Shown here piece by piece: positions 404 through 61,142 of a stretch of 64,000 nucleotides of DNA (the first letter of the stretch is position 1; each line of letters begins with the position of its first letter). A program made the translations under genes and the position numbers. Under the pieces are notes generated by a model. It did not search any database, was not told the DNA's origin, and worked only from the letters and a program-made list of their open reading frames with translations. Where the stretch lies: the NCBI RefSeq assembly GCF_053078305.1, contig NZ_CP166879.1; one strand, 5' to 3'.

Positions 404-462
404 ATCCCTGCGGTCCACAAACTGTTAAACATATCTGCTCTTTTTTCTTATCCGGTTGACGT

Positions 463-2610: not shown

Positions 2611-2614
2611 TTAT

Positions 2615-16371: not shown

Positions 16372-16422
16372 CCGCTACTACGCCAAATACCTGAAGTAGA
16401 AATGGATGTGTCACGAACGGTA

Positions 16423-17608: not shown

Positions 17609-17753
17609 TTCGACTCCATGGATAATTACAACCAGCTGTTTTCATTACTTTTATTTTACCATTACTCTTTCCAGTTTTTGCCCACGGTAGCAAATATCCT
17701 GTTGCATTGTATATGCAGGAACCGAATATAGCCAAAGCATGGCGGCAGAGAAA

Positions 17754-19960: not shown

Positions 19961-20260
19961 CTCCATTTTTCTTTCTTCCAGTCAGGACTGCATCTGATTA
20001 ATCGTAAGCGCTCCGGGAAGTACGTCGCGTAAGGATTATTTTACAGCTGAGAAGTTTCAGTGCAGCAGTTCATGCACACGGTTCGACGGCTAGTCATTGA
20101 TCTTCATAATTACCTCGCGTAAAAAACGGGGTAAGGCCGCTCATCCAGCGTCATCTCCACAGGTAATAATTCAACGCCAATGCCAGAAGAGTTCCTTACC
20201 GGAAGACGCCGTGATATACGCCCTTTGATCGTAAGCGTCAACGGAGCACCGTATTGACGC

Positions 20261-21853
20261 TTATTTATTGGTGAGTACTACGTTCCATGGCAAGAGTTCA
20301 TCAACTCGGTTGGAAGGCCATTCCGGCAGTACGCTCAGGATATGGCGCAGATACGCTTCCGGATCGATACCGTTCAGACGGCAGGTGCCGATCAGCCCGT
20401 ACAACAGTGCTCCACGCTCGCCGCCGTGATCGCTGCCAAAGAACATAAAGTTTTTCTTTCCGAGACAGACTGCACGAAGCGCTCTTTCCGCAGCATTATT
20501 ATCCGCCTCCGCCAGACCGTCATCACTGTAATAACAGAGGGCATCCCACTGATTCAGTACATAGCTGAACGCTTCGCCCAGTCTGGATTTTTTCGACAGC
20601 GTACCATTCTTCTCCACCATCCATTCATGCAGCGACGTCAGTAACACTTTGCTTCGCTGCTGCCTGACGGAAAGACGCTCTGACTCCGGTAATCCCCGTA
20701 TTTCATCCTCGATGGCGTACAGTTCACTGATTCGCTTCAGGGCTTCTTCTGCCTTCGCACTTTTGCTGCTGATGTATACATCGTGGATTTTTCGCCGGGC
20801 ATGGGCCCAGCACGCAACTTCTGTCAGTGCACCACCTTCACGTTCTGCACTGAACAACCTGTCGTAACCTGTGAACGCATCCGCCTGCAGGATACCCCGG
20901 AAGGGGCGGAGGTGTTGCTCCGGGTGTTTCCCCTGCCGGTTCGGCGAGTACGCGAACCAGACCGCTGGAGGAGATGACGAACCCACATTGCGATCATCCC
21001 GGACATACGTCCAGATACGCCCTGTTTTCGCCTTTTTCTGACCCGGTGCCAGTACCTTTACCGGTGTGTCATCAGTGTGAACCTTGCGGGTGTTCATTAC
21101 ATAACGGTACAGGGCATCATTCACCGGTGTCATTAACTGGCAGCACGCGTCAACCCAGTTGGAGAGTAAGGCCCGGCTCAGTTCGACACCCTTGCGGGCA
21201 AAGATTTCACTCTGACGATACAGTGGCAGATGTTCGCAGTATTTTCCCGTTAACACGCGGGCAAGTAATCCGGGGCCCGCGATACCACGCTCTATCGGGC
21301 GGGACGGCGCCGGTGCTTCAACGATGCAGTCACATTTTGTACAGGCTTTTTTTACCCGTTCTGTGCGGATCACTTTCAGGGCGCTGCTCACCAGTTCCAG
21401 TTGTTCTGCACTGACTTCCCCCAGATAATCCAGCTCACCGCCACACTCCGGGCAACAGCTTTCTTCAGACTCCAGACGGTGTATTTCACGGGGAAGGTGT
21501 GCCGGTAACGGACGACGATGGCGCGACTGTCGCAACTGGCGGGGAACCTGTGGATCGTCTTCCCGCCCACTGTAACGATCGCTGTCCTGTTCGCGTTGTT
21601 TCAGCAGGGCCTCAGCCTGTTCAACTTCACGACGCAGTTTTTCAGAACGGGTACCGAACAGCATCCGGCGCAGTTTTTCTATCTGAGCCCGCAGATGTTC
21701 TATTTCCCGTTCATCTTCTTCGATCTTTTCTTCGGCACGTGCCAGTGCAGAGCGCAGGAAGGCCTCCGTCTCTTCAACCAGACTCAGTTGCTGGTCTTTC
21801 TGACGGAGCTGGCTTTCCAGTTCTGCAATGCGAATGAGGTATTTCTGACTCAT
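20261..21853 (-). CDS. IS66-family transposase (TnpC / Orf3)
   Basis: 530 aa; N-terminal coiled-coil/leucine zipper and zinc-finger-like CxxC pairs (CPECG, CTKCDC) typical of IS66 transposases. Confidence 0.9.
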   Translation of the reverse strand: MSQKYLIRIAELESQLRQKDQQLSLVEETEAFLRSALARAEEKIEEDEREIEHLRAQIEKLRRMLFGTRSEKLRREVEQAEALLKQREQDSDRYSGREDDPQVPRQLRQSRHRRPLPAHLPREIHRLESEESCCPECGGELDYLGEVSAEQLELVSSALKVIRTERVKKACTKCDCIVEAPAPSRPIERGIAGPGLLARVLTGKYCEHLPLYRQSEIFARKGVELSRALLSNWVDACCQLMTPVNDALYRYVMNTRKVHTDDTPVKVLAPGQKKAKTGRIWTYVRDDRNVGSSSPPAVWFAYSPNRQGKHPEQHLRPFRGILQADAFTGYDRLFSAEREGGALTEVACWAHARRKIHDVYISSKSAKAEEALKRISELYAIEDEIRGLPESERLSVRQQRSKVLLTSLHEWMVEKNGTLSKKSRLGEAFSYVLNQWDALCYYSDDGLAEADNNAAERALRAVCLGKKNFMFFGSDHGGERGALLYGLIGTCRLNGIDPEAYLRHILSVLPEWPSNRVDELLPWNVVLTNK

Positions 21854-23045: not shown

Positions 23046-25727
23046 TTAGCCTGACAGGCCTGACAAAAACGCGCCCAACTTCCCTTCTATATCACTGTCT
23101 ATAGTACGTAATCTTAGCAATGGCAGACCACATTTCTTCAGTATACTGTTTTTAAGTTCATCACGTTCAGCCTGGACACTGGTCAGATGATAGCCTCCAT
23201 CCACTTCAATAACCCCTAATGGAGTCTTCCCGACCTTATAGTAAACAACAAAGTCACAACTGGCCCGATTACGCATGAATAACAGTTCACGGTGAGTAAA
23301 ATCTCCCCGCTCCAGCAACACCAACTGATTCAGCGCTATTTGTGAATGAAACATCATGCTCCGATAACTATCCTGCGACAGGATATCCCGCAACAGGCAG
23401 GCCACAATCTGTTCTGACTTAAAGCGTGAATCATCTGAATTCAATCTACTATTCAGTCGTTCCAGTGATTTGTCATACTCACTGTACAGCAAATCAAATG
23501 CTGATATCACCGGGCTCTCGAAAATCTCTCCGTCATCAGCGTAGTATCTGATGTAACGAATCAGTGCCGCAATATGTCCAGCGTGGCGTTCAAATACATC
23601 ATTACCAGTCACCAACGTAAATTTGTTTCGGGCCCTTGAAACAGCGACATTCACCAGTTCAGGATTATCAACAAACGCGATATTCCGACTTTGCTGGCTG
23701 CTGCGTTTCTTATCCAGCACAGTGGAAAACACAATTTCATCGCACTCCCGTCCCTGAAATTTATGCACCGTCGATTTCACAAAATCAGCGGGCAGCACTG
23801 TTTCAGCCAGATTAACCTGTGCATTATATGGGGCGATATATCCCCTGCTACTTTCCTCATCCCAGTAATGTCCTTCCAGAGATTCAAGCTCCCTGAGATT
23901 TGAAAAATTACGGGTATGGTTTCCTTTTGCCGTGATGATCAGAGATAATGAGGCTTCACCTGAATCAAGCGTTAGCGGTATCAGAGCATTATCATAAAAC
24001 TGCTTATTACAAAATTGAATGATTTTAGGATGACAGCGATAATGCTCTTTAAGAAGAGTTACTGGCACCATATTCCTGAACGACATACAAACCGAATCAA
24101 GTAGACTATATTTCTCACAATTATAGTATTCTGCCGGTGGAGATGGGCTGTTCGGGAGTAATACAGGAACATGTGGAAGTTGCTTTCGATCCCCTACAAC
24201 GATTACATTACGGGCACATCCTAGTCCCAGAATGCCCGGAACAATATCCTGCTGTGAGGCTTCATCAATAATCACATAATCAAGAAGAGCCCCCTTACCG
24301 ATAGAGTTAATAATAGAATGCGTGCTGCTACCAATAACCGGAAAACGCTTTATAAAACGGTTAAATTCATCCCTGTATGTCTCTGCCGAGAATGAATTTC
24401 TTGTTGAAATATTTCTTCGCAGATGTTGTTTTAAATAAAGCACAGACCATGATGTCAGGCGCTCCAGTAAAATTTTAAAATCAGATTCCTTTAATACTTT
24501 CTCATATTCATTCAAAGAAATTTGTTTTTCCCGGATGGATTTTTCATAATAAGAAAGCTGAAGAGAAGTAAATAGTGCCAGCCTTCTCTCCGGAATCACC
24601 AATGGTTTGACTTTCAGTATCCTGAAGTTTAACAACAAATCAATTCTGTTTCTGAATCCAATCCGCCTGTCAGAAAGGTAATGAATATAAGCCATCAGGT
24701 CAGTTGTTTTTCGTGAGGAAAGTCGGTATTTGTGAGAAAAAAGCTCCTCCGGTCGAAGATTCTGACTCTGCCATTGCTGCAGGTATTTATACTCAACACT
24801 CAGTTCATTAATTTCTGCTTTTAACGAAGCAACCTGGTTGATAGCATTCAGGTGTTTTTTCACTTGTTGAAGTACATCATCAATCATATTTGCAGACGGT
24901 GAGTCAGGTAAGACTTCCTCAGAACGCGAAATCGACGTTGAAAAAAACTGTTGTCTGTTCTCCGTACTTCCCAGTCGTGCCACCACATATCCCAGTCGTT
25001 GTTTGTCCATTTTTTCATAAACATTACTGACAGCTGAGTTATTATTGGACAAAATTGCCACTGTTTTATTCTGAATTAATATATTGGCAACAATATTGAG
25101 AATAGTCTGTGTTTTACCTGTCCCAGGTGGTCCTTCAATAACTGAAATCTGTGAGGAAAATGCCCGTTCAACCGCCATTAACTGACTCTCATTCAGGCCA
25201 AACGGAAAAATCAACCCCCATGGCGAATCACGTTTTTTACTCTGTCCTGAACAGTATGCATGCAAGGCGGTATCCGGATGAGGAACTATTTTCTTTATCT
25301 GTCTGAGGATATTCTCATCGATATTTTTATTATTACCTCGAGCATAAAAAACACGTTCGTCAGCCACCCTGCACAAGTAATTAAACACGGCATGCTCTGT
25401 AAATGCTGAACACTGTTGAAAGTCAAGTCCGGTCGTTTTCATGATGTAGGGTCGTTCGCTCTCACGGTAATAAACAGCAGCATATTTATCACCATAGATA
25501 ATAACCCGTTCAGCCCGGGATGTTACAGCGTTCCCTTTCCTTTCGAGGAAAACATTTCGCAAAATTACAGTTGGCGTTATCTGACATACAGAAAGCGGAC
25601 GAGTATATTTTTTCCCGCTGCGAAAATGACAGGTCAGCATAACCTCTCCGTCATCATTTCCAGCCCACAGAGTCCAGTCGGTAATTTTATGAGTCTTATT
25701 TTCACCGTCAACACAAATCGTGACCAT
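23046..25727 (-). CDS. Superfamily-1 helicase fused to a C-terminal PD-(D/E)xK (DUF2726-like) nuclease domain; candidate defence protein
   Basis: 893 aa; Walker A GPPGTGKTQT, Walker B/motif II VIIDEASQ, further SF1 Upf1/DNA2-like motifs (VGDRKQLPHV, HYRCHPKIIQF, STVHKFQGRECD, VAVSRARNKF); C-terminal VIEVDGGYH...ERDELK...GLPLLRL; N-terminal ~180 aa unassigned. Confidence 0.75.
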   Translation of the reverse strand: MVTICVDGENKTHKITDWTLWAGNDDGEVMLTCHFRSGKKYTRPLSVCQITPTVILRNVFLERKGNAVTSRAERVIIYGDKYAAVYYRESERPYIMKTTGLDFQQCSAFTEHAVFNYLCRVADERVFYARGNNKNIDENILRQIKKIVPHPDTALHAYCSGQSKKRDSPWGLIFPFGLNESQLMAVERAFSSQISVIEGPPGTGKTQTILNIVANILIQNKTVAILSNNNSAVSNVYEKMDKQRLGYVVARLGSTENRQQFFSTSISRSEEVLPDSPSANMIDDVLQQVKKHLNAINQVASLKAEINELSVEYKYLQQWQSQNLRPEELFSHKYRLSSRKTTDLMAYIHYLSDRRIGFRNRIDLLLNFRILKVKPLVIPERRLALFTSLQLSYYEKSIREKQISLNEYEKVLKESDFKILLERLTSWSVLYLKQHLRRNISTRNSFSAETYRDEFNRFIKRFPVIGSSTHSIINSIGKGALLDYVIIDEASQQDIVPGILGLGCARNVIVVGDRKQLPHVPVLLPNSPSPPAEYYNCEKYSLLDSVCMSFRNMVPVTLLKEHYRCHPKIIQFCNKQFYDNALIPLTLDSGEASLSLIITAKGNHTRNFSNLRELESLEGHYWDEESSRGYIAPYNAQVNLAETVLPADFVKSTVHKFQGRECDEIVFSTVLDKKRSSQQSRNIAFVDNPELVNVAVSRARNKFTLVTGNDVFERHAGHIAALIRYIRYYADDGEIFESPVISAFDLLYSEYDKSLERLNSRLNSDDSRFKSEQIVACLLRDILSQDSYRSMMFHSQIALNQLVLLERGDFTHRELLFMRNRASCDFVVYYKVGKTPLGVIEVDGGYHLTSVQAERDELKNSILKKCGLPLLRLRTIDSDIEGKLGAFLSGLSG

Positions 25728-26235
25728 ATTCTCACTCAGTAATTATCATTTAACTTACGGAAAATTGTTATGAAACTCCCGATATTTACCCGGTAAAATA
25801 CTTGTCATTGTTTGAAGCCCTCCCTAAAAAATGACCAGGCATTTGATAACCCGGTGTATTTCTCCCGATATGAGCTCCGGAGGATTTTCCACAACTCCGG
25901 GTGTGTTAACATATTCCCGCCGGCCATATATACATTGAGTTCAGTCATAACAGTCAATACCAGGATTACAGGAACGCGATGCTGATACGCTGGTTATTGA
26001 ATACTGGTAGCCCCTAACTACTAATTCATCACGATACTCTGTACTTACTGTTTTTTACAACCATTCCCCCAGGTAAAAGAGTCCATTTATCATGCCCCTC
26101 TTTAACGCCTGCCAGCATAATTTAAGAATGGATACCGTGGGTGGAATTAACAATACCTGCTCAGGCCAATGCCATGTAACCGCCTCACTGAAAAAGCCAG
26201 ATCATCTAACCAGGTACAGACCAACATCGCAAAAA

Positions 26236-26385
26236 TTACCATGTAGCACGAACTGCTGTCATATTTCTGTTCAGGTATGCCGCTATTTCGCGGGTTTTCT
26301 TCACGCCATAATGCGTTTCAAGGTAGCGAACATCTTCGATTGTCCATGGTGTGCGCGCTCTTCCGGGGGTATTTTCCATTTCCAT
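26236..26385 (-). CDS. Small hypothetical protein (49 aa), possible DNA-binding protein; below the ORF-track length cutoff
   Basis: Own translation of the minus strand: MEMENTPGRARTPWTIEDVRYLETHYGVKKTREIAAYLNRNMTAVRATW; starts 15 nt downstream of the vasL-like stop; no homology support. Confidence 0.3.
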   Translation of the reverse strand: MEMENTPGRARTPWTIEDVRYLETHYGVKKTREIAAYLNRNMTAVRATW

Positions 26386-26400
26386 GTTTTATCTCAGCCA

Positions 26401-27765
26401 TTATGGCTGCCTCTCCTGATTGCCTGTGTGTTCCATCTGATAACGATTAATCAGCTGATTCAGTGCCATTTCAGCCTGTTTTTGCTGCTGTTCACTGCCA
26501 TTCTGATTACGGGCTTCATCATAGCGACGTAACTGCTCTTCTGCCGGGATATGCCGGTTAAAAGCCTGCATGATGCCAAACACCTCCGTTTTCAGTTCAC
26601 TGACCGTCATGTATTTTCCCCGCTGTTCATCCAGACGGTTCAGGCGCTCAGCCAGCTGCTGTAAGCGGGTCATGCCTTCGTTCCAGCCCGTCATCGCCTC
26701 TTCCGGAAGCGCTCGGCTCCTTACGCTCTTCTGCCAGTTATCCACCATTTCCTGAACACGGGGATTGTCGGGGAAAAGTCCCCTCAGTTGCTGCAGCAGC
26801 TGCGCACTGCGTTGCAGGTTGTATGCCGGCGGTAGTTCTGTCAGTCGCGTTATCTGCTGACCGGAAAGGGTTATCCACTCTGACGCATGATTTAACAGTG
26901 AGGGTGTTCTGCTGAGTTGCGCCATCTGGTCTGCTGAAAGCACATCCGGTAGTGGTGCCAGCAGCGCCCTGAGTTGCTGCTCCGCCGATGATGGCTGTGT
27001 CAGAAACTGCCATCCCGGAATGACCACGCTGACAGTCAGCAATGCCGCACAGACACCAGCCACAAACGGTTTCAGAAACGTGGGCGGGGATTTCTGAAGG
27101 GAGGGTGTGGGTTCTGCTTTTGTTTCAGAAACAACATACACCAGACGGGAGTACGGCAGGGGCTGATGTTCCTGTACATCCGGAGCATCAGACCGGAGTG
27201 CCTGAGCCGGAAGGGTTACCGGCGACGATACTTCACCCTGCACAGGCTGATTCTCCAGACGGGTGATATATCCCTTCACCATGGCTTCCGGTAAAGCCAC
27301 TTTACTGCTCTGTTTAAGTTCATGCCGGGCCAGTATGTCACTCAGCGTTTTCAGGCATGTTTCTGTCTGATACAGCAGGGGCAGATTGTCACGCTCATCC
27401 GGTGGCATGGCCCGGAGCGTTTTTTGCAGACGACTGAACAGACCGGTAATAATTTCCAGCCGGGCGTGGGTATTCAGCGGCCACATCACTGACCAGTGAT
27501 GCCGGGTCAGCGCCACAATCAGAGCCAGCCCTTCATTCAGACCACTTAACCCTGCTGTATGCATCCGGGCGATGGTGTACCAGGATACCGTCTGTAATTC
27601 CACGCCATTGTGTTCATACAGACGCAGGCAGAGCGTCTCCACATAACGCCAGTCCACATCCGGACGTGCCGGGTGAGTCAGCTTGCTGATTTCATCGCGC
27701 AGGGCAGCATAATCCGGTAATGACCGGGGGTCATTACCTGTTTTCAGTTTTACTTCAGAAGTCAT
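26401..27765 (-). CDS. T6SS-associated ImpA_N-domain membrane protein (VasL-like)
   Basis: 454 aa; N-terminal domain resembles the TssA N-terminus (DYAALRDEISKL...VSWYTIARMH versus TssA ...ATWYIWARL...) followed by one TM segment and a periplasmic region. Confidence 0.65.
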   Translation of the reverse strand: MTSEVKLKTGNDPRSLPDYAALRDEISKLTHPARPDVDWRYVETLCLRLYEHNGVELQTVSWYTIARMHTAGLSGLNEGLALIVALTRHHWSVMWPLNTHARLEIITGLFSRLQKTLRAMPPDERDNLPLLYQTETCLKTLSDILARHELKQSSKVALPEAMVKGYITRLENQPVQGEVSSPVTLPAQALRSDAPDVQEHQPLPYSRLVYVVSETKAEPTPSLQKSPPTFLKPFVAGVCAALLTVSVVIPGWQFLTQPSSAEQQLRALLAPLPDVLSADQMAQLSRTPSLLNHASEWITLSGQQITRLTELPPAYNLQRSAQLLQQLRGLFPDNPRVQEMVDNWQKSVRSRALPEEAMTGWNEGMTRLQQLAERLNRLDEQRGKYMTVSELKTEVFGIMQAFNRHIPAEEQLRRYDEARNQNGSEQQQKQAEMALNQLINRYQMEHTGNQERQP

Positions 27766-29166: not shown

Positions 29167-30247
29167 TTTCCTGAGCCTCCTTACGTTGATAATGTTCCTG
29201 AACCCGCTGATAACGCCCCAGACTGATGGTCATTACGCGTGCCGCTGAAGTCGTTATCTTTGCCTGTGTTCTCATTACAGCCGTGCGCCCCAGTTGCGGA
29301 CTACCGGCTGCCGGTCGGCAACTGAGCCGGACATCCGGCAACAGTGAACGCTTAACACAAAGTTGCAGACGTACATCCAGACGGCTTCCCGGATAAACGT
29401 GCAACAACGCCAGCAAATCAGAATACAGCTGCCCGCCCGGTAACCAGCCCTGTACCTCGCTGCCCGTCTGTGTTGAAAGCTGTAATAACACCTGTCCGTT
29501 CACATCCGTAGCATGATCGCCCATCACCGGGTGACTCTTCAGACTGACCGGGTGATGAACACGCATGGTCAGCGGCGCTTTCAGCGGGATCCGTCGTCGG
29601 TCATGATGCCAGACACGGGCCTGTGTTCCGGGAGCCAGCAGCGTTACCAGTGATGTCAGCCCTTCAGCTGTTCTTCCGGGTAATAACATCAGGGGCAATA
29701 ACGCCAGAAAACGCGATACCGGCGTGGCAATATTCTGTGCACATCCGGGGATCCCCAGTCTGGCCAGGCCAAGCAGATACTGAGACGTTTTATCCTGCCC
29801 TCCCGGCTCAAAGGTGGCCGGGTACGAATACTTACGCCAGATACGGTAATACTGGGTGATCAGACGATGACTGAATATATCGAGAAAATCCGCTGCGGCC
29901 TCATGGCCTTCCCGCTGCTGTGCAATATCACTGATATAGTGTGCCGGCAGCGGAGACGTGACCCCGTAAAGTCCCATAAACGTCACCTGTACAGTGGGTT
30001 GCAGATGGGATTCTTCAGGAATTACAGCGTCTTTTATTTCACTCGCAGGAAACCCCATTCCCGGGTATGGACAAAAGAGGACCGCTTCCTGACGGGCCTG
30101 CCAGCCACTGCCAATGGGAGGCTGGTCTGGCTGGATTTGCTCCAGCAACTGACAGAAGCGATAAAAATTAATATACGGAAGCTGTTTCCGGTAACGGGTA
30201 ATTAACCGGGCAGGCGCGGATTGTGATTTTCTTTCCACCGGATGCAT
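29147..30247 (-). CDS. tssG: T6SS baseplate component TssG
   Basis: 366 aa; overlaps the tssF 3' end; position and length typical. Confidence 0.75.
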   Translation of the reverse strand: MHPVERKSQSAPARLITRYRKQLPYINFYRFCQLLEQIQPDQPPIGSGWQARQEAVLFCPYPGMGFPASEIKDAVIPEESHLQPTVQVTFMGLYGVTSPLPAHYISDIAQQREGHEAAADFLDIFSHRLITQYYRIWRKYSYPATFEPGGQDKTSQYLLGLARLGIPGCAQNIATPVSRFLALLPLMLLPGRTAEGLTSLVTLLAPGTQARVWHHDRRRIPLKAPLTMRVHHPVSLKSHPVMGDHATDVNGQVLLQLSTQTGSEVQGWLPGGQLYSDLLALLHVYPGSRLDVRLQLCVKRSLLPDVRLSCRPAAGSPQLGRTAVMRTQAKITTSAARVMTISLGRYQRVQEHYQRKEAQENGDYRW

Positions 30248-39793: not shown

Positions 39794-41476
39794 TTAAACA
39801 CCAGACATCATAACTTTAGTATTTTTTACTGCGTTATCATTCAATCGCTGCTGATCATCCATGTACCATACAGAACGAATCCAGCGATCATTTGGTTTAT
39901 TCGGAAAAACGAACGCCTTATTACCTTTAGGACCAAAGCGATGGATAAAAATCTCTCCCGTTGTAGGATCCACCCATAAATTACCATCAGACTCAATATT
40001 CCAGTTGGCAGAACAATGGGTGTATTTTCCGATAATATACAACTCTTCCTCAGTAAAAGCCTGAGGCTCTTGCCCCAAACGTACCGCTTTTCCCTGAGCA
40101 ATGGCTTTATCAACAAAAGGAATTAATTCAGGAGATAAATTCATATCTGGATTTTTGGGGTCAATTGGAGCAAACAATACCCCTGCTTCCTGAGCAGCAT
40201 CCAGCATCACACGCAGGCAAACATTAGCCCAGTCATTAGGTACTGCCATACGCTCAAAAAATACTGCGGCTCCCACCTGCTTTTGTATCACGCCAGCCCG
40301 ACGTTGATTGCTGTTGTTCACACCTACGGAACGAATTTTGGTGGTTAGTTTTCCATGAGGCAAAATATGTTTTAAGGCTGGCAGAGTCATCAACATTTTT
40401 CTGGCTTGCTCTGCATTACGGTATACTCGCGTATCTGTTTCTCTGGTATCGTCACTGACAATTTCAAATGCCGGGCAACTCAGAAACAGACTTTCATTTT
40501 CCTGCAGAGGTGAACCTACCGGATTGTAACCACCTCCAATATCTGAATGCGCCCCTGGTAAAGCCAGTTCGGGCCACATACCTTTAATACTGTTCAGGCT
40601 GAAATTATATCGGTATTCATTCATTGCAGTAATCTGGAAAACTTTCTTCGCGATGGAAGGACGCAATTCCAGCTTTACTCCCGGGTTGCTACGTCCATTA
40701 ATATCGAAGAAATTACTGATTCCACCAATAGCTGCGACAGTATCAAAAAGCCCCAGAAAACGGACTTCACCCGAAGGTTTACCATCATAAAAATCGCCTC
40801 TGAGCCCTTTAGCAATAGCTCTGGCTATAGCAGGATCCTGTTCCATAACCCGATTAGCAAAGTGCCTTGCCGCCGCTGCTCCCCGGCTAAAACCAAAAAC
40901 ATCAAACTGGATTTTTGCGATACAAAAATCAGGATTTAAATTGAACCCCATAAATTCTGATAACGCTTGGGTGATTCGTTCCATTGCCTCGTCGGTTTTC
41001 GTCACCACACCTTCAAATATATCCAGAATACTGGTGCCTAATCCCATGCCAATGACTGAATCTGCTTCACCAGCCGCAGTCCCTATCCCGGAAATGTAAG
41101 TCTGAATTTGTGCTTCAACCTGACTTTCCAACAAAGTCTGATCTGCTACGTAAAGTGAATTTAGCCAGTGGATATTGGAATAATATCCACGATAACTGCC
41201 ATTCGAGATACTGTTCTTGTTAATTTCTTCAAGAAAGTCCTCACAGCTTTGTGCATCTTTTTGATTTACCCCCTGTCTGGCTGCACTACACTCATTAAAT
41301 TTCATCAGACGAGATGCTGTATTCTCCCGATTGTTTCCGGTACCATCGAAAAATATACCAATGGTTAAAGTCACACCCCGCGCCGGTTTTTTCTTTGCAA
41401 CAACAACTTTCCAGTCATTATGAATACTGGTTTTATGGGTGGCATCTGTTACATCATATCCCTGATATTTTGTCAT
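39794..41476 (-). CDS. T6SS phospholipase effector, Tle1 family (DUF2235 alpha/beta hydrolase)
   Basis: 560 aa; hallmark motifs GIFFDGTGNN and GFSRGAAAARHF (GxSxG); start overlaps the vgrG stop (ATGA). Confidence 0.85.
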   Translation of the reverse strand: MTKYQGYDVTDATHKTSIHNDWKVVVAKKKPARGVTLTIGIFFDGTGNNRENTASRLMKFNECSAARQGVNQKDAQSCEDFLEEINKNSISNGSYRGYYSNIHWLNSLYVADQTLLESQVEAQIQTYISGIGTAAGEADSVIGMGLGTSILDIFEGVVTKTDEAMERITQALSEFMGFNLNPDFCIAKIQFDVFGFSRGAAAARHFANRVMEQDPAIARAIAKGLRGDFYDGKPSGEVRFLGLFDTVAAIGGISNFFDINGRSNPGVKLELRPSIAKKVFQITAMNEYRYNFSLNSIKGMWPELALPGAHSDIGGGYNPVGSPLQENESLFLSCPAFEIVSDDTRETDTRVYRNAEQARKMLMTLPALKHILPHGKLTTKIRSVGVNNSNQRRAGVIQKQVGAAVFFERMAVPNDWANVCLRVMLDAAQEAGVLFAPIDPKNPDMNLSPELIPFVDKAIAQGKAVRLGQEPQAFTEEELYIIGKYTHCSANWNIESDGNLWVDPTTGEIFIHRFGPKGNKAFVFPNKPNDRWIRSVWYMDDQQRLNDNAVKNTKVMMSGV

Positions 41477-43992
41477 TCTGTTTCTCCATGAATTTTTACC
41501 TTCCCAAACTCAACTTTTACTACTGACGGAATGGAGGTGTTGACTGGCGCTGTTTTACCATTTTCATCGGTGATCCCCTGTAGAATATCACCTTCAGCCG
41601 TTGTTAATCGATAAGGCGTCGAAGGTTGCGGCACTCCCGCTTCATCGGTAAGAATAAAACCGCCACCAAACCCTCGCGGCATTTCAACAGACGCAATATC
41701 AAGACTTGTTGGTCCCATCTTCTGCATATTCGTGCTTTTTAACAGGATCTGTCCCGGGCATCCCAGCTCAATATTTCCACCGCTTAGTTTGATATAAGCT
41801 CCACCACATGCCAGTATCAGTTCCTGATTAGCAGAAACAGTCACTTTGCCCTCAGAACTTTGAATATCAAGATTCTGTTGGGAACTCATTGACAAATCGT
41901 CACTTTGAGCCTGAATATTTACCCGCCCTTTTGCTGCTAACAGTTGCATCCCCTGGTTTCTGCTCAACAGGCTAACAGCACCTTCTGCTACAACTGTAAA
42001 TGACTGCCCGGCACTAATATCAGTGTTATCTCCCGACATTATGCCCACGCTTTCACTACCCGAAGCAATTCGTAACGCCCGTGCACTAACCATGCCAATC
42101 CCATCAGGAGCATGCAACAGCATTCCCGGCGCAGTGAGATCTGTTAGCGATGAATTCAACCGTTGCTGACAACTTATATCTCCCTGAGTAGCATTTGCAG
42201 CAGTTGCGGCCTTCGCCATACTTCGGGCCAGAGATAATGCCAGCTCCAGTTGGCGGATAGCTTCATTCATATCCAGCATCTTTCCTTGTGCCTGAGGCTG
42301 CATATCTGCACTGATAAATATTCCTTTTCCTCCCCGGATACTTATCCAGTCATCAGTCCTCAGCTCAGCGCCTTCTCCCCTGAGTTTCCGGGAGGCATTA
42401 ACGTTATGACCAAGATTAAGTTGTGTCTTACCGCCAAACTCGGTACTGATCTTGATATGCTCCTCACCGCGTTTGTCCTCCATCCGCAACTTGTTATTTG
42501 CCGGCGTACGGATAACATTGCGCGTACCGTTCTTATCGGTAACGTGATCAACATGACGTGAATCATGCAGGGCATGCGCGATATAGGGGCGATCCGGATC
42601 ACCTTCCTCAAAGGCAATGGCCACTTCCGTTCCCTGAATCAGCGGAAAATGAAAACCATAAGCATCACCACTGTAGGGTTTGGCCAGACGTACCGGCATG
42701 CTTTCCTGTCCCGGATTTTTATCATCACGGTCAGCATCAAATTTCACCCGGTACATACCTGATGCATCCTGCCAGGCGTAGATATCCCCTTCTTTTGCAC
42801 TGGTCACACGGGCCGTCATGGTACCGGTAACTTTCGGACGCGGCAGTAAAGGAGGACGCCAGCAGATAACTTCACTGTAAGGAACGCCCTTCAGTACAAC
42901 CTGCAGGGCATCCTTGCGACTTGCAGAAAAACCGACACAGGTAAGCAACACCGGATTGCGCAGCAGCGCAGGCAACGTCGGCGGAAGACTGTCGGTGATA
43001 GTCAGAACCTGAGCAGGTGCCAGCGTGGCGTCTGTACTGTTGCCGGTTATCCGCACCTGCTCCGCCAGATAACGTTCATGACCAAGGCGGGCATAAAAAT
43101 TGGCCGTCTCCGGCACCGGGTCGATTTTATCCCCCCGTTCCAGATGACGGAAATGGTAGTGGTACACCTCACCATAGTTAATTCCGTCACCATCACCATG
43201 CGTCATGTCTGCCGGGGCGGACTGCAACAGATATTGTGCTTCACGATGGTTATAAGCCTTTGTGGTGACACTGGCCTCTGCCACATTGTGCGTCACATTC
43301 AGCCCCCACACTGAATCCGCTCTGTTATCATTCATTCCGGACGGACTGTTTATCGCCAGCGTCTTATCAAACGTCAGCGCAGCCTGGCTGTCACCAAAAT
43401 GCACTACTTCCGTCTGCGTGTCCGGTTGCAGGGTGAAAAAATAAAAAATCCCCACTTCAGCCAGCAAACGCTGAATAAATTGCAGGTCACTTTCCTGATA
43501 CTGGTTAATTTGTTCACGCTTCGGATACGTTTTTTTGAGACGGAACTCAAACTCCCAGCCTTTCAGGCCGTGCTCCTGGAGAACCTCTGTCACCACCTCC
43601 GGCACCGATTTGTTAACGAAAAATCGGTGAGAACGATGCTGCCTGTCCAGTAGTTTAATAAATGGTTCCAGTATCACCTGGTATTTTGCCTGGTCGGCGG
43701 AGCCCGATATACGACGAAAATCTGTAATGACACCATGTACTACTTTCTGGCTCACCTGCTCCTTAAGCCCTCCCGTACCCATTGTAAATGTGGCTGATTT
43801 ACGCAGCAGCAGCCCGGCATCCAGGTCGTTGTCAGTACTGGTAAAATTGATGATGTAATAATAGGTCTGACTCATCTCCTCCCTGCCGCTGAAATGCTCA
43901 ACATCCAGTGGTGACGGGCAGGAGGGAATAATTAAATGGTAACGATTCAGGGAAGCAGAGATAGTTTTTGAAAGTGTATCTGTCAGACTCAT
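41473..43992 (-). CDS. vgrG: T6SS spike protein VgrG with C-terminal extension
   Basis: 839 aa; GGAG RBS; longer than the ~650-aa core, consistent with a C-terminal effector-binding extension. Confidence 0.9.
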   Translation of the reverse strand: MSLTDTLSKTISASLNRYHLIIPSCPSPLDVEHFSGREEMSQTYYYIINFTSTDNDLDAGLLLRKSATFTMGTGGLKEQVSQKVVHGVITDFRRISGSADQAKYQVILEPFIKLLDRQHRSHRFFVNKSVPEVVTEVLQEHGLKGWEFEFRLKKTYPKREQINQYQESDLQFIQRLLAEVGIFYFFTLQPDTQTEVVHFGDSQAALTFDKTLAINSPSGMNDNRADSVWGLNVTHNVAEASVTTKAYNHREAQYLLQSAPADMTHGDGDGINYGEVYHYHFRHLERGDKIDPVPETANFYARLGHERYLAEQVRITGNSTDATLAPAQVLTITDSLPPTLPALLRNPVLLTCVGFSASRKDALQVVLKGVPYSEVICWRPPLLPRPKVTGTMTARVTSAKEGDIYAWQDASGMYRVKFDADRDDKNPGQESMPVRLAKPYSGDAYGFHFPLIQGTEVAIAFEEGDPDRPYIAHALHDSRHVDHVTDKNGTRNVIRTPANNKLRMEDKRGEEHIKISTEFGGKTQLNLGHNVNASRKLRGEGAELRTDDWISIRGGKGIFISADMQPQAQGKMLDMNEAIRQLELALSLARSMAKAATAANATQGDISCQQRLNSSLTDLTAPGMLLHAPDGIGMVSARALRIASGSESVGIMSGDNTDISAGQSFTVVAEGAVSLLSRNQGMQLLAAKGRVNIQAQSDDLSMSSQQNLDIQSSEGKVTVSANQELILACGGAYIKLSGGNIELGCPGQILLKSTNMQKMGPTSLDIASVEMPRGFGGGFILTDEAGVPQPSTPYRLTTAEGDILQGITDENGKTAPVNTSIPSVVKVEFGKVKIHGETE

Positions 43993-44070
43993 ATTGTTAA
44001 CTCCATGTCTGTACCGGTATTGAACTGCAATTATATAATGATGACCGTTAAGCTTTATTTTCAGAGAGAA

Positions 44071-44298
44071 TTACTGATAATCATCCCATTCATCGTAAAT
44101 ATATGCATATGCAAATCGATACATCAGATAACCGACAAAAAATAACGCAACAGAGAGCCCTCCCCACAGATATTTAAATTCAGCAGATGAGAGAAAAAAG
44201 AACCAGACTGTAAATACAATACCCGACGCACCTAACCCCATACCTGCGCCACGGATAAATCGGGAAAGCATTATAAGTAATGTTCTTTTTATCTTCAT
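44071..44298 (-). CDS. Small two-TM membrane protein (75 aa), unknown; possible immunity protein
   Basis: Internal ATG at 44298 overlaps the stop of the upstream gene (ATGA); hydrophobic (GMGLGASGIVFTVWFFFL, LSVALFFVGYLMYRF); AT-rich. Confidence 0.5.
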   Translation of the reverse strand: MKIKRTLLIMLSRFIRGAGMGLGASGIVFTVWFFFLSSAEFKYLWGGLSVALFFVGYLMYRFAYAYIYDEWDDYQ

Positions 44299-44936
44299 AA
44301 ACCACCGAAAAAATATTCGCATATCCGGTCAAACTCAGCCGAATTTCGGTCTGCGACAATACAGGCTCGTTCAAACGGGCGCACAATATCTTCAACAAGA
44401 AAGTACAAAAGATCCAAATCCCCCTGAGCTTTCAGCTTATCATGCAACACCGGATTTCTGTCTTTCAGAAAACGGGATGTGTAAATCGCACGCGATGTCT
44501 CTGCGCCAACAGATAATAACAACCCGGCAAAACTCCCTGCAAAAAAAGCAGCCAGCCCTCTGGATACCAGAACCTCTCCCAGTTTAACCCCGGTCAATTC
44601 AGCAAATGCCATTCTACCTGCCAGATCTCCTGAAACGTTCTTCACAATGGAGCCTGTTTTTTCCATATTGATCCGGGATACAAAGTCTTCAAGACAAATA
44701 CTGATAATTTTCCCAATAATATCACGGCTGAAAATGCCTTTTTCTACCAGTCTGGCCATTCTGAATTTGTCATTCTGGTTTTCCCGCCTATGCCCGGTAT
44801 CTATAAAATCATATCCCATATAACCGAGACTGACTGGCAAAGATATGAGTCCCTTCCCGACGGCCCCCAGAAACCCATCCCCATTAATATTTACGGCCTC
44901 CAGCATATCCCGGGCAATTTCTTTAGCACTGTCCAT
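44295..44936 (-). CDS. Hypothetical protein (213 aa) between clpV and vgrG, unknown function
   Basis: ATG at 44936 chosen just downstream of the clpV stop; AT-rich; no recognised domain. Confidence 0.5.
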   Translation of the reverse strand: MDSAKEIARDMLEAVNINGDGFLGAVGKGLISLPVSLGYMGYDFIDTGHRRENQNDKFRMARLVEKGIFSRDIIGKIISICLEDFVSRINMEKTGSIVKNVSGDLAGRMAFAELTGVKLGEVLVSRGLAAFFAGSFAGLLLSVGAETSRAIYTSRFLKDRNPVLHDKLKAQGDLDLLYFLVEDIVRPFERACIVADRNSAEFDRICEYFFGGL

Positions 44937-47610
44937 ATATGCTTTCCTGCGGATAATCGCTATTGATTCCATCAAACGCTATCACAATACCATCCTCATC
45001 ATTCCACGTCAGAGACAGGTACGTCGGATGCTGTCTGGCAGCAAGATAGCTGAGCAACTGCCGGCTCAGTACCGGCAGCAGTTGCTGGTTCAGCAGACTC
45101 TCCACATTCCGGGCGCCCGTATCCGGCAGCAGGCAGGCGGATGTCAGGGCATCGTACACACGTTCATCAACCGATGTGCTCAGCCCATAATGGCAGTGCA
45201 GGCGTTCGCAGACCTGTGCAAGCTTCATCTCCACAATGGTGCGCATGGCAGACTGCGTCAGCGGACGGTAAATCACGGTCCGGAAACGGGCAAGCAGTGC
45301 TGGCTGGAAGTGGTCGCGCAGCAGTGGACGGATAAGCTCATGCAGCTCCGATTCCGTTGTCTCCGGCTTTTCGCTAAGTTGCTGCATCAGAAGGTCACTG
45401 CCCAGATTGGAGGTCATCAGAATGACCGTATTACGGAAGTCAATTTCACGCCCCTCACCGTCGCGCATAAAGCCCCGGTCAAACACCTGGTAGAACAGAT
45501 TCAGCACATCCCGGTGGGCCTTTTCCACTTCATCCAGCAGCACCACGCTGTAAGGGCGTTTACGCACAGCCTCCGTCAGAATACCGCCCTGACCGTATCC
45601 CACGTACCCGGGCGGTGACCCCTTAAGCTGGGAAACCGTATGGGGCTCCTGGTATTCCGACAGATTGATGGTAATCAGTGATTTTTCGCCGCCGTACATC
45701 ACGTCTGCCAGCGCCAGTGCCGTTTCGGTTTTTCCCACACCACTGGGACCGACCAGCAGGAACACCCCCTGGGGGCCGTTACCGGATGTCAGACCCGTTT
45801 TCGCCGCACGCAGACGCTGCGCAATGGATTCCAGTGCCACGTCCTGTCCGACCACCCGTCTGCCGATATCCTTTTCCAGATGCAGCAGTTCCGTCTGTTC
45901 GTCCTTCATCAGGGAAGATAACGGCACCCCGGTCCGGTCCGCGACCACACCGGCAACGGTGCGTACGTCAACATCCACACTGAGCAGGGGCTGATTCTGC
46001 TGAATGTCGTGCAGTGCCTGCTGCAGGTGATGTGTCTCACTCTGGCGGGAAATATCGCTGCGGCTTTCAAGTAACTCACCGGTGAGTTCGCACTCCCGGG
46101 CGTACTGCTGCTCCAGGTCATCACGTGCTGTCATCAGCTCGTTCTCTTCCTGCTCAATGGCAGACAGACGTTCGCCGTGATTCTGATGACCAACGGCAAT
46201 ATCTTCCAGCAGTGCCTGTTTTTCCATACCGAGGGAAGCGAGCTGTGAACGGATACGGGTCAGCTGTTCCGGCACCGTGTCGAGGCTCATACGCACACGG
46301 GCAGCAGCAGTATCGAGCAGGTCAACAGCCTTGTCCGGTAACTGGCGTTCTGTCAGATAACGGCGCGACAGCGTGACGGCAGCACGTACCGCCTCATCGG
46401 TGATATGCACGTTATGATGTTCCGCATAACGGGATTTCAGGGAGCGCAGCATCAGACAGGCCGTCTCATCATCCGGCTCGTCCACTCTGACCATCTGAAA
46501 ACGCCGCTCCAGAGCCGCGTCACGTTCCAGGTATTGTTTGTACTCAGACCAGGTGGTGGCGGCAATGGTACGCAGTTCACCCCGCGCCAGCGCAGGCTTC
46601 AGCAGGTTGGCCGCATCCGCGCCGCCGGCCTGATTACCGGCCCCGATAAGGGTATGGGCTTCATCTATAAACAACAGTACAGGAGCCGGTGACTGCTGCA
46701 CGGCATCAATCACGTTTTTCAGGCGCTGTTCAAATTCACCCTTCACGCCGGCACCGGCCTGCAGCAGGCCGAGGTCAAGGGTGCGCAGGGTGACGGGTCT
46801 GAGTGATTCCGGTACGTTACCTTCCGCAATACGCAGGGCGAGCCCTTCCACCAGAGCCGTTTTCCCCACACCAGGGTCCCCCACCAGAATCGGGTTGTTC
46901 TTGCGGCGGCGGGAGAGAATATCCACCATCTGACGGATTTCCGTATCGCGTCCCGATACCGGGTCAATTTTCCCCTCTCTCGCGCTGGCCGTGATGTCCC
47001 GGGTGAATTTATCCAGAGCACTCTGTAACACAGGCGGCAGGTCACCTGACGGTATACCCGCCGTATCCGCACCGACGGGACGCCCGATAAAGGTCACATT
47101 GTCTCCCTGAGGCAGCACAGGCTCTGCATCCTGTAATCTCTCCGGACACTCATCAGACTGCGCATCCAGCAGCGGGGACAGACGCTGCAACTGGCTATGA
47201 CTCAGTGTCAGCAGCGGCCACAGCCCGTCACAGCGAACCAGGTGCGGATTTTCCGTCAGGGCACCCAGCAGATGCACGCTGCGGATATGTTCTTCTCCCT
47301 GTAATGAGGCCACCATCCAGGCCTGTTTCAGCAGGGCATTCAGGGACGGCGCAAGCTGCGGGCAGCTGCGTACGCTACGGGGCTGGTTATCCAGCCAGCC
47401 GAGCAGCGACTGCCATATCGCGTCCATATCCCAGTCATAACGCCGGCCCAGCACGGTAAGGTCTCCTTCGCCCTGCTCCAGCAGTTTCAGTAACCAGTGC
47501 TCCGGGGTGATTTCCGCATGGGCCCGGGTCTGGCAAAGGGAGGCTGCGCCTTCCAGTGCACGGGCACAGTAATGATTAAGACGGCGTAACAGAGCTGCCG
47601 GATTTTCCAT
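44923..47610 (-). CDS. clpV: T6SS AAA+ ATPase ClpV (TssH)
   Basis: About 895 aa from the internal ATG (ORF-track start is GTG at 47619); two AAA+ modules with Walker A motifs GDPGVGKT and GPSGVGKT. Confidence 0.9.
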
Positions 47611-47730
47611 GTTATTCACTCACTGTCAGAAGACCTTCAGACACGCTACCGCCCTTCGCCATAACCCGGGCGCATCAGGTCTGTGTTCAGGACTGAGAAT
47701 TCTTTCTTCAGCACCCGCCAGCAGATACTG

Positions 47731-47778: not shown

Positions 47779-48270
47779 TTACGCAGTGGTACGTTCATTC
47801 CACGCGTCAGAATGAATGATGTTACCGTCCTTATAAGTCCAGGTGATTTTCTCGTAGCGCAGCTCCACCTGCTCAAGGTGGTTATGCTTCTCGTAGGCGG
47901 GATTCTTGATGTCGTGCATGACCGGGTTAACCTTCACCACCTTCACGTTCTCAAGCTTCGTATTGAAATACTCCACTTCCTGACCGGCATCATTGATTCT
48001 GTACCACTTAAACTCAGCAGACTTCAGGGTCTGCCCCGTGGTCACCGCCTTGTAAAGGTAGGGGCTGGAAGAATCAATTTCCTTGGTAAACAGGAACGGC
48101 GTGTGAATACGGGTACCGGTCAGCTTACCGGTATTGTTATCCGTCGGAATGTAAAGGCAGTGCTCCTGAGCCACCACTTCAATACTGCCCTCACGGTCCT
48201 TCACATCCACGGAGCCTTTAATATCCGCTCCGCCATCATCCTGCAGCCACAGATAAACAGGAATTGCCAT
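47779..48270 (-). CDS. hcp: T6SS tube protein Hcp
   Basis: 163 aa from ATG at 48270 (RBS GAGGGAG); MAIPVYLWLQDDGGADIKGSVDV... typical Hcp; the ORF-track 5' extension was rejected. Confidence 0.9.
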   Translation of the reverse strand: MAIPVYLWLQDDGGADIKGSVDVKDREGSIEVVAQEHCLYIPTDNNTGKLTGTRIHTPFLFTKEIDSSSPYLYKAVTTGQTLKSAEFKWYRINDAGQEVEYFNTKLENVKVVKVNPVMHDIKNPAYEKHNHLEQVELRYEKITWTYKDGNIIHSDAWNERTTA

Positions 48271-59039: not shown

Positions 59040-61142
59040 CTAATTTGTAATTCTAAAAATCCGATCAACTGTTCTTAAAGTTGTCTCTCTATGTGCAATA
59101 ATCACCCGGGTGATATTCATCTTTTTTATAGCAGCATTCACGAAACGTTCACTTTCTGTATCAAGAGAACTTGTAGCCTCATCCATAAATAATATTCCAG
59201 GTTTCCGGTATAAAGCTCGGGCAATGAATATACGCTGTTTTTGACCGCCGGAAAGACCTTCCCCCAGTTCACCTATTAACGTTTCATACCCCATTGGCAT
59301 TTTCATTATCACATCATGAATATGACTTGCTTTGGCACATTCTGTCATCCATTCGTCGTCTGTTTCTTCTGCAAACCCACAGATATTTTCACGAATTGAT
59401 CCTGAAAATAGCCGGTCGTCCTGCATAACACAGGCTATCATACGGTGATAATTATTTATTCCAAGTTGACGTATATCCGTGCCATTAACCAGTACTTTTC
59501 CACTATCTGGTTCAAACAGTCCACATAATACTTTCATTAATGTGGTTTTTCCGGCACCGGAGGCACCAGTTATAGCCACACTTTCTCCCGGAGCCACAGA
59601 CAAATTCAGACCACTGAATACCTGTGCTGACTGGCTGTCATACCGGTAGCTTAAATCAGTGGTTTCCAGTGAAACCGGGCTCATGTCAGCAACGATTTCA
59701 ATTTCCGGTTTCTTTTCTTCCTTTTCATGTAGTGCAATATCTGCAATGCGCTCATTATGCAGACTCATTATTCTCAGTTGAAGAAGAAAACTGGTCAGCG
59801 AAGCAACCCGATCCGAAAACTGCCCACGAAAAGAACCAAATGCCACAAACATCCCTATTGTCATCTGATTATCGATCACAAGGCTTGCACCCAGCCATAA
59901 AATCGCCACCTGATCACAGGCGGCAACAAAAGTATTTATCCCCCCGAAGAGCAAATCCATCCTGGTTAACTTAATACCTGAATTGATCGCATCTATTTTC
60001 AGGTTAAGCCAGTGTGTTCCCCGAATCCCAGCCATACCCTGGATTTTTACCGTGGCAATACCATACAGGCTTTCCATAAAATAGGAGCTGGCCCGGGCCC
60101 CCCTGACAAGAGTTTCTTCCGATATTTGCCGGTAATAGCCGTATGTCACCAGACGAATAAGAACGTAAACCATGGTAAAACCGAGCACTATCCAGGTAAG
60201 ATATCCTCCATATAACAGCATCATCACAAAAACACCCACAACCATAATACTGTCCATGATTGCCCCAACAACACAGGTAGTAAAGGTGGCCCTCAAAGTG
60301 TCAAGGGAGCCAAAACGCGACTGGATATCACCTAATTTACGGCGTTCAAAAAACGCCAGCGGCAGTCTGAGAAGATGGTTAAACAGACCCGACTGCCACT
60401 GTATATTGATGAGCGTGCTCATAACCAGTGAGGACCATGCACGCAGCATACTCACCGCGGCCCTGAGCAATATAAAGAACATCAGGCCAGCAGAAATAAG
60501 CGTCAGCAGCCCTCTGTCCCCCGCCGGAATCGCATGATCCATAACCAGCTGAGTTCCCACCGGCATTACCAGATTGATTGCTTCAATTACAACTGACAGA
60601 CAGAAAATTTTCGCCAGTGTTCTTTTAATACCGTAAATACTGTTAATCAGTGAACGGAGACTTATGCGGGTCTGCTGGGTTTCCGCCAGGAATTCACTTC
60701 CGGGCCAGACCTCAAGTGCAATGCCCGTAAAATACCGGCTCATTTCCTCCCGACCGAGATATCTTCTGCCTCTGGCCGGATCATGCAGTACATAACGGTT
60801 ACGCTTTACGCTGACCAGCACGACGAAGTGACTGAAATCCCAGTGGAGAATACACGGCATTTTGAGGGCACCAAGTTCATCCAGCTCCAGTGAAAGAGCC
60901 CGGGTGACCATCCCCAGCTGCTCCGCTATTCCATTGATTCCTGCAAGGTTTGCTCCACGGGCCGAGAGATTAAACTTCCGGCGAAGAGATATCAGGTCAA
61001 TATTCTTACCAAAATGACCGCATATCATTGCCAGGCAGGCCAGTCCACATTCAGCGGTCTCCGTCTGATGAATAACCGGAACACGACGTCGCCAGCGCAT
61101 ATCAAGCTGATTTATAATTTGTCTGAAATTCCCGTTAGTCAT
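59040..61142 (-). CDS. Microcin ABC exporter with catalytic C39 peptidase domain (CvaB/MchF-like)
   Basis: About 700 aa from ATG at 61142 ([11 protein letters not shown]...); C39 active-site region [16 protein letters not shown] retains Cys; Walker [10 protein letters not shown], signature LSGGQKQR; closely resembles CvaB from memory. Confidence 0.9.

Follow-up and report, generated by a model that had tools for sequence, protein, structure and literature searches.

The window analysed here is a stretch of 64,000 nucleotides (nt) of contig NZ_CP166879.1 (NCBI RefSeq assembly GCF_053078305.1), and the subject of this work is a pair of overlapping genes located in it between clpV and vgrG of a type VI secretion system (T6SS). 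This window is an Escherichia coli chromosomal island which carries, on its minus strand, an apparently complete T6SS-1 (i1, Sci-1-like) cluster, and the two genes very likely form an effector-immunity cassette of the Ssp6/Sip6 family placed in a variable slot of that cluster. The Ssp6/Sip6 pair was described in Serratia marcescens Db10, where Ssp6 is SMDB11_4673 (Mariano et al., 2019; PMC6889166). Homology, synteny, gene structure, coupling, distribution and predicted folds were computed, while secretion, loading, pore activity and immunity were inferred by homology.

The gene pair and its coupling

The features of the pair are the following:

44295..44936 including stop, minus strand: ssp6-like gene, predicted pore-forming T6SS effector of 213 amino acids (aa) and 23.5 kDa (open reading frame, ORF, and sequence)
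44071..44298 including stop, minus strand: sip6-like gene, predicted cognate immunity protein of 75 aa, a two-helix membrane hairpin
44295..44298, minus strand: ATGA overlap of 4 nt (ttATGAag) between effector stop and immunity start, translational coupling (sequence)
44472..44582, minus strand: codons 119-155 of the ssp6-like gene, hydrophobic Gly-rich helix LVSRGLAAFFAGSFAGLLLSVGAE, then GAExSRAIYTSR (hydropathy and alignment)
44923..44936, minus strand: overlap of 14 nt between the ssp6-like start and the clpV 3' end, including the clpV stop
43993..44070, minus strand: spacer of 78 nt from the sip6-like stop to the vgrG start, without a terminator-like site

The ssp6-like gene starts with the ATG at 44936, which is preceded by an AGGAAA Shine-Dalgarno sequence 7 nt upstream, and its stop codon is at 44295-44297, whereas the sip6-like gene extends from the ATG at 44298 to the stop codon at 44071-44073. 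The preliminary description of this DNA had reported two coupled genes of 213 and 75 aa, and both ORFs were found where it had placed them, joined by the ATGA overlap. The same two proteins are also called by NCBI PGAP in a near-identical E. coli genome (WP_000376468.1, 213 aa, and WP_001562482.1, 75 aa). A terminator and promoter scan of 43800-45200 found no terminator; on the coding strand, the only promoter-like match was a weak one where vgrG starts. As no terminator separates the pair from vgrG, its co-transcription with clpV and vgrG is likely.

Relationship of the two proteins to Ssp6 and Sip6

The sequence of Ssp6 was reached through the published primer table, in which parts of ssp6 and sip6 are given. 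With a wobble-degenerate 26-mer derived from one of these primers, a single locus was identified among 100,044 species-representative genomes, that of Serratia bockelmannii S3, which belongs to the S. marcescens complex; the degenerate 26-mer was exact at this locus and the other two primers matched at 23/24 and 22/23 positions. The S3 locus contains a 648-bp ORF encoding a protein of 215 aa (start MAKG, end EKVSK) of 24.46 kDa, in comparison with the 24.5 kDa published for Ssp6 (PMC6889166), and this ORF is followed, with a 4-nt overlap, by a 204-bp ORF whose product has the C-terminal end KFHDGV. The published Sip6 is encoded by a 204-bp ORF with a four-nucleotide overlap with ssp6 and has two predicted transmembrane helices (PMC6889166). 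No T6SS genes were seen near the S3 locus, and ssp6 of Db10 is encoded away from T6SS genes (PMC6889166). The S3 locus agreed with the published description at every point compared, and the S3 protein is an Ssp6 orthologue.

The 213-aa protein of the window aligned with this 215-aa orthologue with 42% identity over 207 of its 213 residues (E 8e-57), and the family profile matched the orthologue with an hhalign probability of 100. In addition, it was 72% identical to P0012 and 74% identical to P0152, the latter being the full-length 213-aa call of the same Serratia PRI-2C gene, whose end is at CP015613.1:1903812. The founders of the family list it among the homologues as 'Serratia plymuthica PRI-2c 1' (Supplementary Data 1, HMMER score 309, E 1.5e-95; PMC6889166), and they had already mentioned E. 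coli homologues of Ssp6 (PMC6889166). Moreover, the corresponding gene of E. coli MEW, the slot region of which is 98.8% identical at DNA level, bears the RefSeq name 'Ssp6 family T6SS pore-forming effector'. At the sequence level, three independent lines (the founders' list, the RefSeq name and the orthologue alignment) confirm the membership of the 213-aa protein in the Ssp6 family. The pair is a member of an already known system, and the word 'cryptic' of the preliminary description has to be abandoned, since the family was published in 2019 and its name already stands in RefSeq for E. coli.

A search of a large protein collection gave 196 homologues of the 213-aa protein, nearly all of 210-215 aa and all labelled hypothetical, and those carrying an organism name were from Enterobacterales throughout. 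Searches of Pfam, NCBIfam 20.0, PADLOC, PHROGs and PDB sequences gave no meaningful match for either protein. A Pfam scan of 36 family members likewise detected no domain, and the 'DUF4225' label present on a few UniRef members was not reproduced.

The preliminary description had proposed structure prediction and remote homology search; besides the Ssp6 profile match given above, they yielded an all-alpha AlphaFold2 model of the effector with 11 helices (predicted template modelling score, pTM, 0.73). Its AFDB50 matches at E <= 0.001 were solely uncharacterised proteins of 139-295 aa, mostly of ~200-220 aa, their named organisms were Enterobacterales except one, and they included species on the published homologue list. 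No fold likeness to a solved pore-forming domain, either of colicin type or of other structurally known toxins, was found.

In the 36-sequence family alignment the mean column identity was 69%, with invariant blocks around GAExSRAIYTSRxL and GDLDLLYFLVED. GAExSRAIYTSR is the most conserved motif of the family, and in the Ssp6 orthologue it reads GAMNSRAIHTSR. Positions G134, G138, G144, E146, S148, R149, I151-T153 and R155 are invariant in the 36 aligned members, and the window protein retains all the residues that are invariant across the alignment. The hydropathy maximum is found at ~residues 122-146, and the AlphaFold2 confidence is low at residues 136-142. Hydropathy and conservation together make residues 119-155 a candidate membrane-inserting element. 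The earlier designation of the 213-aa protein as soluble is for this reason only half right, as the hydrophobic Gly-rich stretch at ~122-146 does not agree with it.

The 75-aa protein has two hydrophobic stretches (~residues 20-36 and 43-59) separated by a short polar loop, and its AlphaFold2 model is a hairpin of helices 2-36 and 42-74 with a mean predicted local distance difference test (pLDDT) value of 87.8, in agreement with the two transmembrane segments assigned to it beforehand. A homologous ORF of 72-75 aa with the same 4-nt overlap was found behind the effector gene in Serratia, two Enterobacter lineages, Yersinia and Salmonella, and all six other genus-level loci examined contained a small ORF overlapping by 4 nt. 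A profile of 17 relatives from which Sip6 was excluded gave a collinear alignment with the Sip6 orthologue (probability 93.9, E 1.6e-7, 59 columns), values which the hydrophobic composition may inflate. The 75-aa protein is shown to share a common architecture with Sip6, and common ancestry of both is probable. Divergence among immunity proteins is to be expected. Only some of the partners were found similar to Sip6 by the founders (PMC6889166). The effector/immunity nature suggested for the pair in the preliminary description is thus supported by an effector that is a full-length homologue of Ssp6 and by a partner that resembles Sip6 in where its gene lies, in its size, in the 4-nt overlap and in its two-helix architecture.

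The 75-aa gene is intact yet unannotated in several RefSeq records, including those of strains 04-00955 (locus 20094-20395) and MEW (~16172-16399), and the small immunity ORF is also absent from the gene calls of the Enterobacter loci and of one Yersinia locus out of two. Surveys of effector/immunity pairs that rely on annotation will therefore undercount this gene.

With respect to the Serratia plymuthica copy, the differences at codon positions 1, 2 and 3 were 50, 24 and 109 in the 213-aa gene and 14, 12 and 31 in the 75-aa gene. Because third-position changes are in excess, purifying selection is seen to act on the coding sequence of both ORFs. This result bears on the possibility that the pair, while belonging to the Ssp6/Sip6 family, is functionally silent or decayed in this strain, as the Serratia paralogue pair SMDB11_0810/0809, the expression of which was not detectable and which was weakly toxic (PMC6889166), and that it is kept mainly for immunity against Ssp6-like attack by neighbours. 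Besides this precedent, some E. coli clusters bearing the pair are disrupted by insertion sequences (IS), for instance that of strain 2012EL-2448. Nevertheless, such silence is improbable for the pair of the window: in addition to the excess of third-position changes and the presence of all family-invariant residues, both ORFs are intact and near-invariant in the E. coli copies compared (0-5 residue differences in the 213-aa protein and 0-1 in the 75-aa protein), and the effector gene is translationally linked to clpV in an apparently complete cluster.

The T6SS-1 cluster and its clpV-vgrG slot

The neighbouring genes to which the pair was related are listed below. Gene names in the window come from ORF sizes and from the RefSeq annotation of collinear strains, with direct confirmation by family models for vgrG only.

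44923..47619, minus strand: clpV/tssH, T6SS ATPase, directly upstream of the pair (ORF; RefSeq annotation of collinear E. coli loci)
47779..48270, minus strand: hcp, 163 aa, likely carrier of the small effector, a predicted role (ORF, translation, RefSeq annotation)
41473..43992, minus strand: vgrG spike gene, directly downstream of the pair (NCBIfam TIGR01646, 9.5e-100, and TIGR03361, 6.8e-74)
39794-41476, minus strand: tle1, VgrG-linked, AT-rich (Tle1-EAEC in RefSeq for collinear strain 04-00955)
39097-39774, minus strand: tli1, VgrG-linked, AT-rich (Tli1-EAEC in RefSeq for collinear strain 04-00955)

The order of the cluster on the minus strand is tssB, tssC, tssK, tssL, an OmpA-family gene, hcp and clpV/tssH, then the two-gene pair, vgrG, tle1, tli1, PAAR and a 382-aa gene, and finally tssM, tssA, a 265-aa gene, tssF, tssG, tssJ and tssE. 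The tle1 and tli1 genes are the second effector/immunity pair of the cluster, and their Serratia counterpart carries the Pfam domains T6SS_Tle1-like_cat and DUF2931. As a consequence of having both pairs in the same cluster, the carriers hold two membrane-targeting weapons, Ssp6-like and Tle1.

The clpV type of the window was present in full length in 88 of 5426 complete E. coli genomes. The Ssp6-like pair was found in 35 of the 5426, that is, in 35 of the 88 with this clpV, and an unrelated pair occupied the same slot in 35 of the 88, among them enteroaggregative E. coli (EAEC) 042 and 55989. This EAEC-type pair consists of a 188-aa hypothetical protein, for which no NCBIfam match was obtained, and a protein of 180 aa that matches NF045617, 'putative T6SS immunity periplasmic lipoprotein' (E 5e-24). 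In at least two of the remaining genomes, STEC711 and DSM 103246, the slot is empty and vgrG overlaps the clpV stop. The matches of clpV to loci lacking ssp6 start at query position 34 or 45, which puts the left edge of the cassette within the last 34-45 nt of clpV; the aligned slot sequences part from each other at the 3' end of this gene. From this sequence comparison, the clpV-vgrG interval is an effector/immunity exchange site in E. coli.

The preliminary description had stated that in related clusters vgrG usually follows clpV without intervening genes, which was not borne out in the closest relatives: many of them have another pair of genes in the slot, and it is empty in only some. In contrast, the horizontal acquisition that it had suggested agrees with the presence of the pair in so few complete genomes and with a slot which is differently filled or empty in sister clusters, and the comparison of the same interval in related loci, also proposed there, revealed a pair that is not conserved in all of them (35/88) and a slot that is exchangeable.

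Outside E. coli, Serratia plymuthica, Enterobacter mori, other Enterobacter and Yersinia showed the order hcp-clpV-effector-immunity-vgrG, the cargo after VgrG being different. In Salmonella the order is tagF-effector-immunity-vgrG, and hcp was not within the 5 kb upstream examined.

Some particular loci of this comparison deserve a description. The EAEC-type pair lies at 7874-8976 of the E. coli 55989 locus, is identical in EAEC 042 and is apparently uncharacterised, being part of the model EAEC Sci-1 cluster. E. coli STEC313 (NZ_CP041433.1) contains both slot types, at 2241964-2243164 and 828484-829586, and the two sites imply two T6SS-1-like clusters or fragments in one genome. In E. coli 2012EL-2448, which has an identical pair, the cluster is broken by ISEc8/IS66 in tssB and by an IS1 that directly follows vgrG and replaces tle1 (insertions at 16939-17636 and 29676-32623 of its locus), so that the effector pair can persist in a disabled T6SS.

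The G+C (GC) content of the 213-aa gene is 45.0% and that of the 75-aa gene 37.7%, with values at third codon positions (GC3) of 43 and 33%, respectively, in comparison with 58.2% for clpV and 49-58% for the core T6SS genes. The cassette is AT-rich in every host (36-43% GC, vs. 58-63% in the adjoining clpV), and in the cassette of the Serratia Ssp6 orthologue, to which clpV is not adjacent, the values are 42.9 and 40.7%, vs. ~59% in the flanks. The higher AT content initially attributed to the pair relative to its flanks stands with respect to clpV, but low GC is not confined to the pair and continues from vgrG (49.4%) through tle1 (42.8%) and tli1 (40.9%) to the 382-aa gene (45.6%). This low-GC stretch comprises window positions 37647-44936, including the 3' part of vgrG and the 382-aa gene adjoining PAAR; for this 382-aa gene, the name given to the MEW counterpart is 'KPHS_23130 family T6SS system protein'. 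Low GC was also found in the gene of 265 aa that separates tssA from tssF (31973-32770), with 40%, vs. 49-58% in the core genes.

The location of the pair also allowed us to evaluate other roles for it. One of them, put forward as an alternative in the preliminary description, is that of an adaptor or chaperone which, with a membrane accessory, would load Tle1 or other cargo onto the downstream VgrG. The position directly upstream of vgrG is in fact constant in five genera, Escherichia, Enterobacter, Serratia, Yersinia and, with tagF upstream instead of clpV, Salmonella. However, none of the 36 family members scanned contained DUF4123, DUF1795, DUF2169 or any other Pfam domain (E <= 0.001; for the query, none at E <= 10), and NCBIfam gave no adaptor match either. 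In addition, the VgrG cargoes that the pair accompanies are unrelated (Tle1, a PGAP1-like lipase, a LysM protein and a hypothetical protein of 775 aa), the sister E. coli clusters of EAEC have the same Tle1 module without the pair, and the homologue Ssp6 is itself a secreted toxin, all of which makes an adaptor function most improbable. A role as membrane accessory in the structure or regulation of the T6SS apparatus, as could be thought of a pair within the core operon that overlaps clpV, is hardly credible when only 35 of the 88 E. coli genomes with this clpV contain it, the slot is empty in STEC711 and DSM 103246, and Ssp6 itself is encoded away from any T6SS gene.

Past tssE (window 23046-27765) there are an 893-aa ORF with an AAA domain and a 454-aa ORF, which may be T6SS remnants or accessory genes. 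The counterpart of this region in strain 04-00955 (locus 1-3046) is annotated as fragments of pseudogenes (a gene with a VasL domain and an N-terminal piece of ImpA). On the other side of the window, at ~59040-63900 and beside the T6SS, collinearity with 04-00955 and ORF sizes indicate the microcin H47 export genes mchF, an HlyD-family gene and a toxin-activating acyltransferase. The position of mchB in 04-00955 corresponds to a point just past the window end. By this collinearity, the microcin H47 genes would be a second antibacterial weapon beside the T6SS.

Proposed action of the cassette and comparison with known systems

Secretion of Ssp6 is T6SS-dependent and its toxicity in the periplasm is relieved by Sip6 (PMC6889166). 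The toxin causes a non-lytic depolarisation of the inner membrane and, in bilayers, forms pores that are selective for cations, while Sip6 binds Ssp6 directly, neutralises it and localises to the outer-membrane fraction (PMC6889166). By analogy with this Serratia pair, from which the whole mechanism is carried over, the 23.5-kDa all-alpha effector of the window would be synthesised along with clpV and vgrG and then be mounted on the Hcp/VgrG structure that is expelled, the inside of the Hcp tube being its most likely place. After delivery to the periplasm of an enterobacterium nearby, it would enter the inner membrane through its hydrophobic Gly-rich helices and oligomerise to a cation-selective pore, which would collapse the membrane potential and arrest growth but cause no lysis. 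Its partner, the 75-aa membrane protein with two helices and a translationally coupled gene, would bind the incoming toxin and so protect the producer and its kin.

With regard to loading, Ssp6 is Hcp-dependent (PMC6889166). Its secretion is independent of either single VgrG, as it is secreted whichever one is present. Since, moreover, the window protein is small (23.5 kDa) and the VgrG cargo modules of the different loci are unrelated, loading via Hcp is probably also the route of the E. coli member.

Several points weigh against the assignment to the Ssp6/Sip6 family and the function deduced from it. The identity to the Ssp6 orthologue is only 42%, and G138 of the GxxxG motif is not kept in that orthologue. 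Neither NCBIfam 20.0, Pfam, PADLOC nor PHROGs has a model matching one of the two proteins, so that pairwise and profile comparisons, together with the RefSeq name, are the basis of the family assignment. Similarity between the 75-aa protein and the Sip6 orthologue is weak in pairwise alignment (~21-22% identity, E 0.003), and part of it could come from a composition common to any two-helix membrane hairpin. As the Serratia paralogue SMDB11_0810 is nearly silent, activity of the E. coli member cannot be assumed, and its toxicity, secretion and immunity are predictions from homology. Lastly, the constant position directly upstream of vgrG would also suit a VgrG-linked route, and no Hcp variant specific to ssp6-bearing loci was found, with 0-10 residue differences among E. 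coli loci regardless of slot content; Hcp not co-varying with the slot content, its sequence does not settle the loading route.

A divergence from Ssp6 may also be envisaged for the 213-aa clade found upstream of vgrG, either in a loading by VgrG, in another pore selectivity or target range, or in a neutralisation at the inner membrane. We regard this as rather unlikely; if it were true, the clpV-vgrG junction would be a dedicated cassette-exchange site common to several genera.

An Ssp6/Sip6-family cassette at this position would mean that a minority of E. coli have in their T6SS-1 a depolarising toxin against bacteria of an already characterised class; among the listed carriers, many are Shiga-toxin-producing and come from humans, cattle, goats and meat. 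In addition, the three states of the clpV-vgrG slot in E. coli (Ssp6-like, EAEC-type and empty) offer a marker for typing T6SS cargo and a natural system to study cassette exchange.

Compared with Ssp6/Sip6 of Db10, the pair of the window has in common an effector with full-length homology (213 vs. 215 aa), an alpha-helical prediction and a distribution restricted to Enterobacterales, as well as a small two-helix partner overlapping by 4 nt and a cassette that is AT-rich relative to its flanks. It differs in location, as ssp6 of Db10 lies away from all T6SS genes whereas the window copy is inside the main cluster, between clpV and vgrG, and in its partner, which has 75 aa vs. the 67 of Sip6 and an acidic YDEWDDYQ tail that Sip6 does not have. 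A likeness was also found with the 213-aa Ssp6-like clade (Serratia plymuthica/inhibens PRI-2C, Klebsiella michiganensis KCTC 1686 and others; PMC6889166), the members of which have the same length and are 60-81% identical, PRI-2C presenting also the order clpV-effector-75-aa ORF-vgrG; in this clade the host differs and the downstream VgrG cargo varies by locus.

Enterobacter cloacae EcWSU1 likewise carries, according to the published text, an Ssp6-family cassette in an interchangeable slot of its main T6SS cluster, and that slot was described as an effector exchange hotspot (PMC6889166). By this description, it is the tssC-hcp slot and not that between clpV and vgrG, in another T6SS subtype. 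The pair of EAEC 042 and 55989 shares with that of the window the slot, its flanks, an effector/immunity appearance and an equal frequency (35 genomes), but the sequences are unrelated and its immunity protein is a periplasmic lipoprotein instead of a two-helix hairpin. Finally, Ssp4/Sip4, VasX, Tse5, Tke5 and the colicin pore domains resemble the cassette in the expected depolarisation of the inner membrane countered by a membrane immunity protein.

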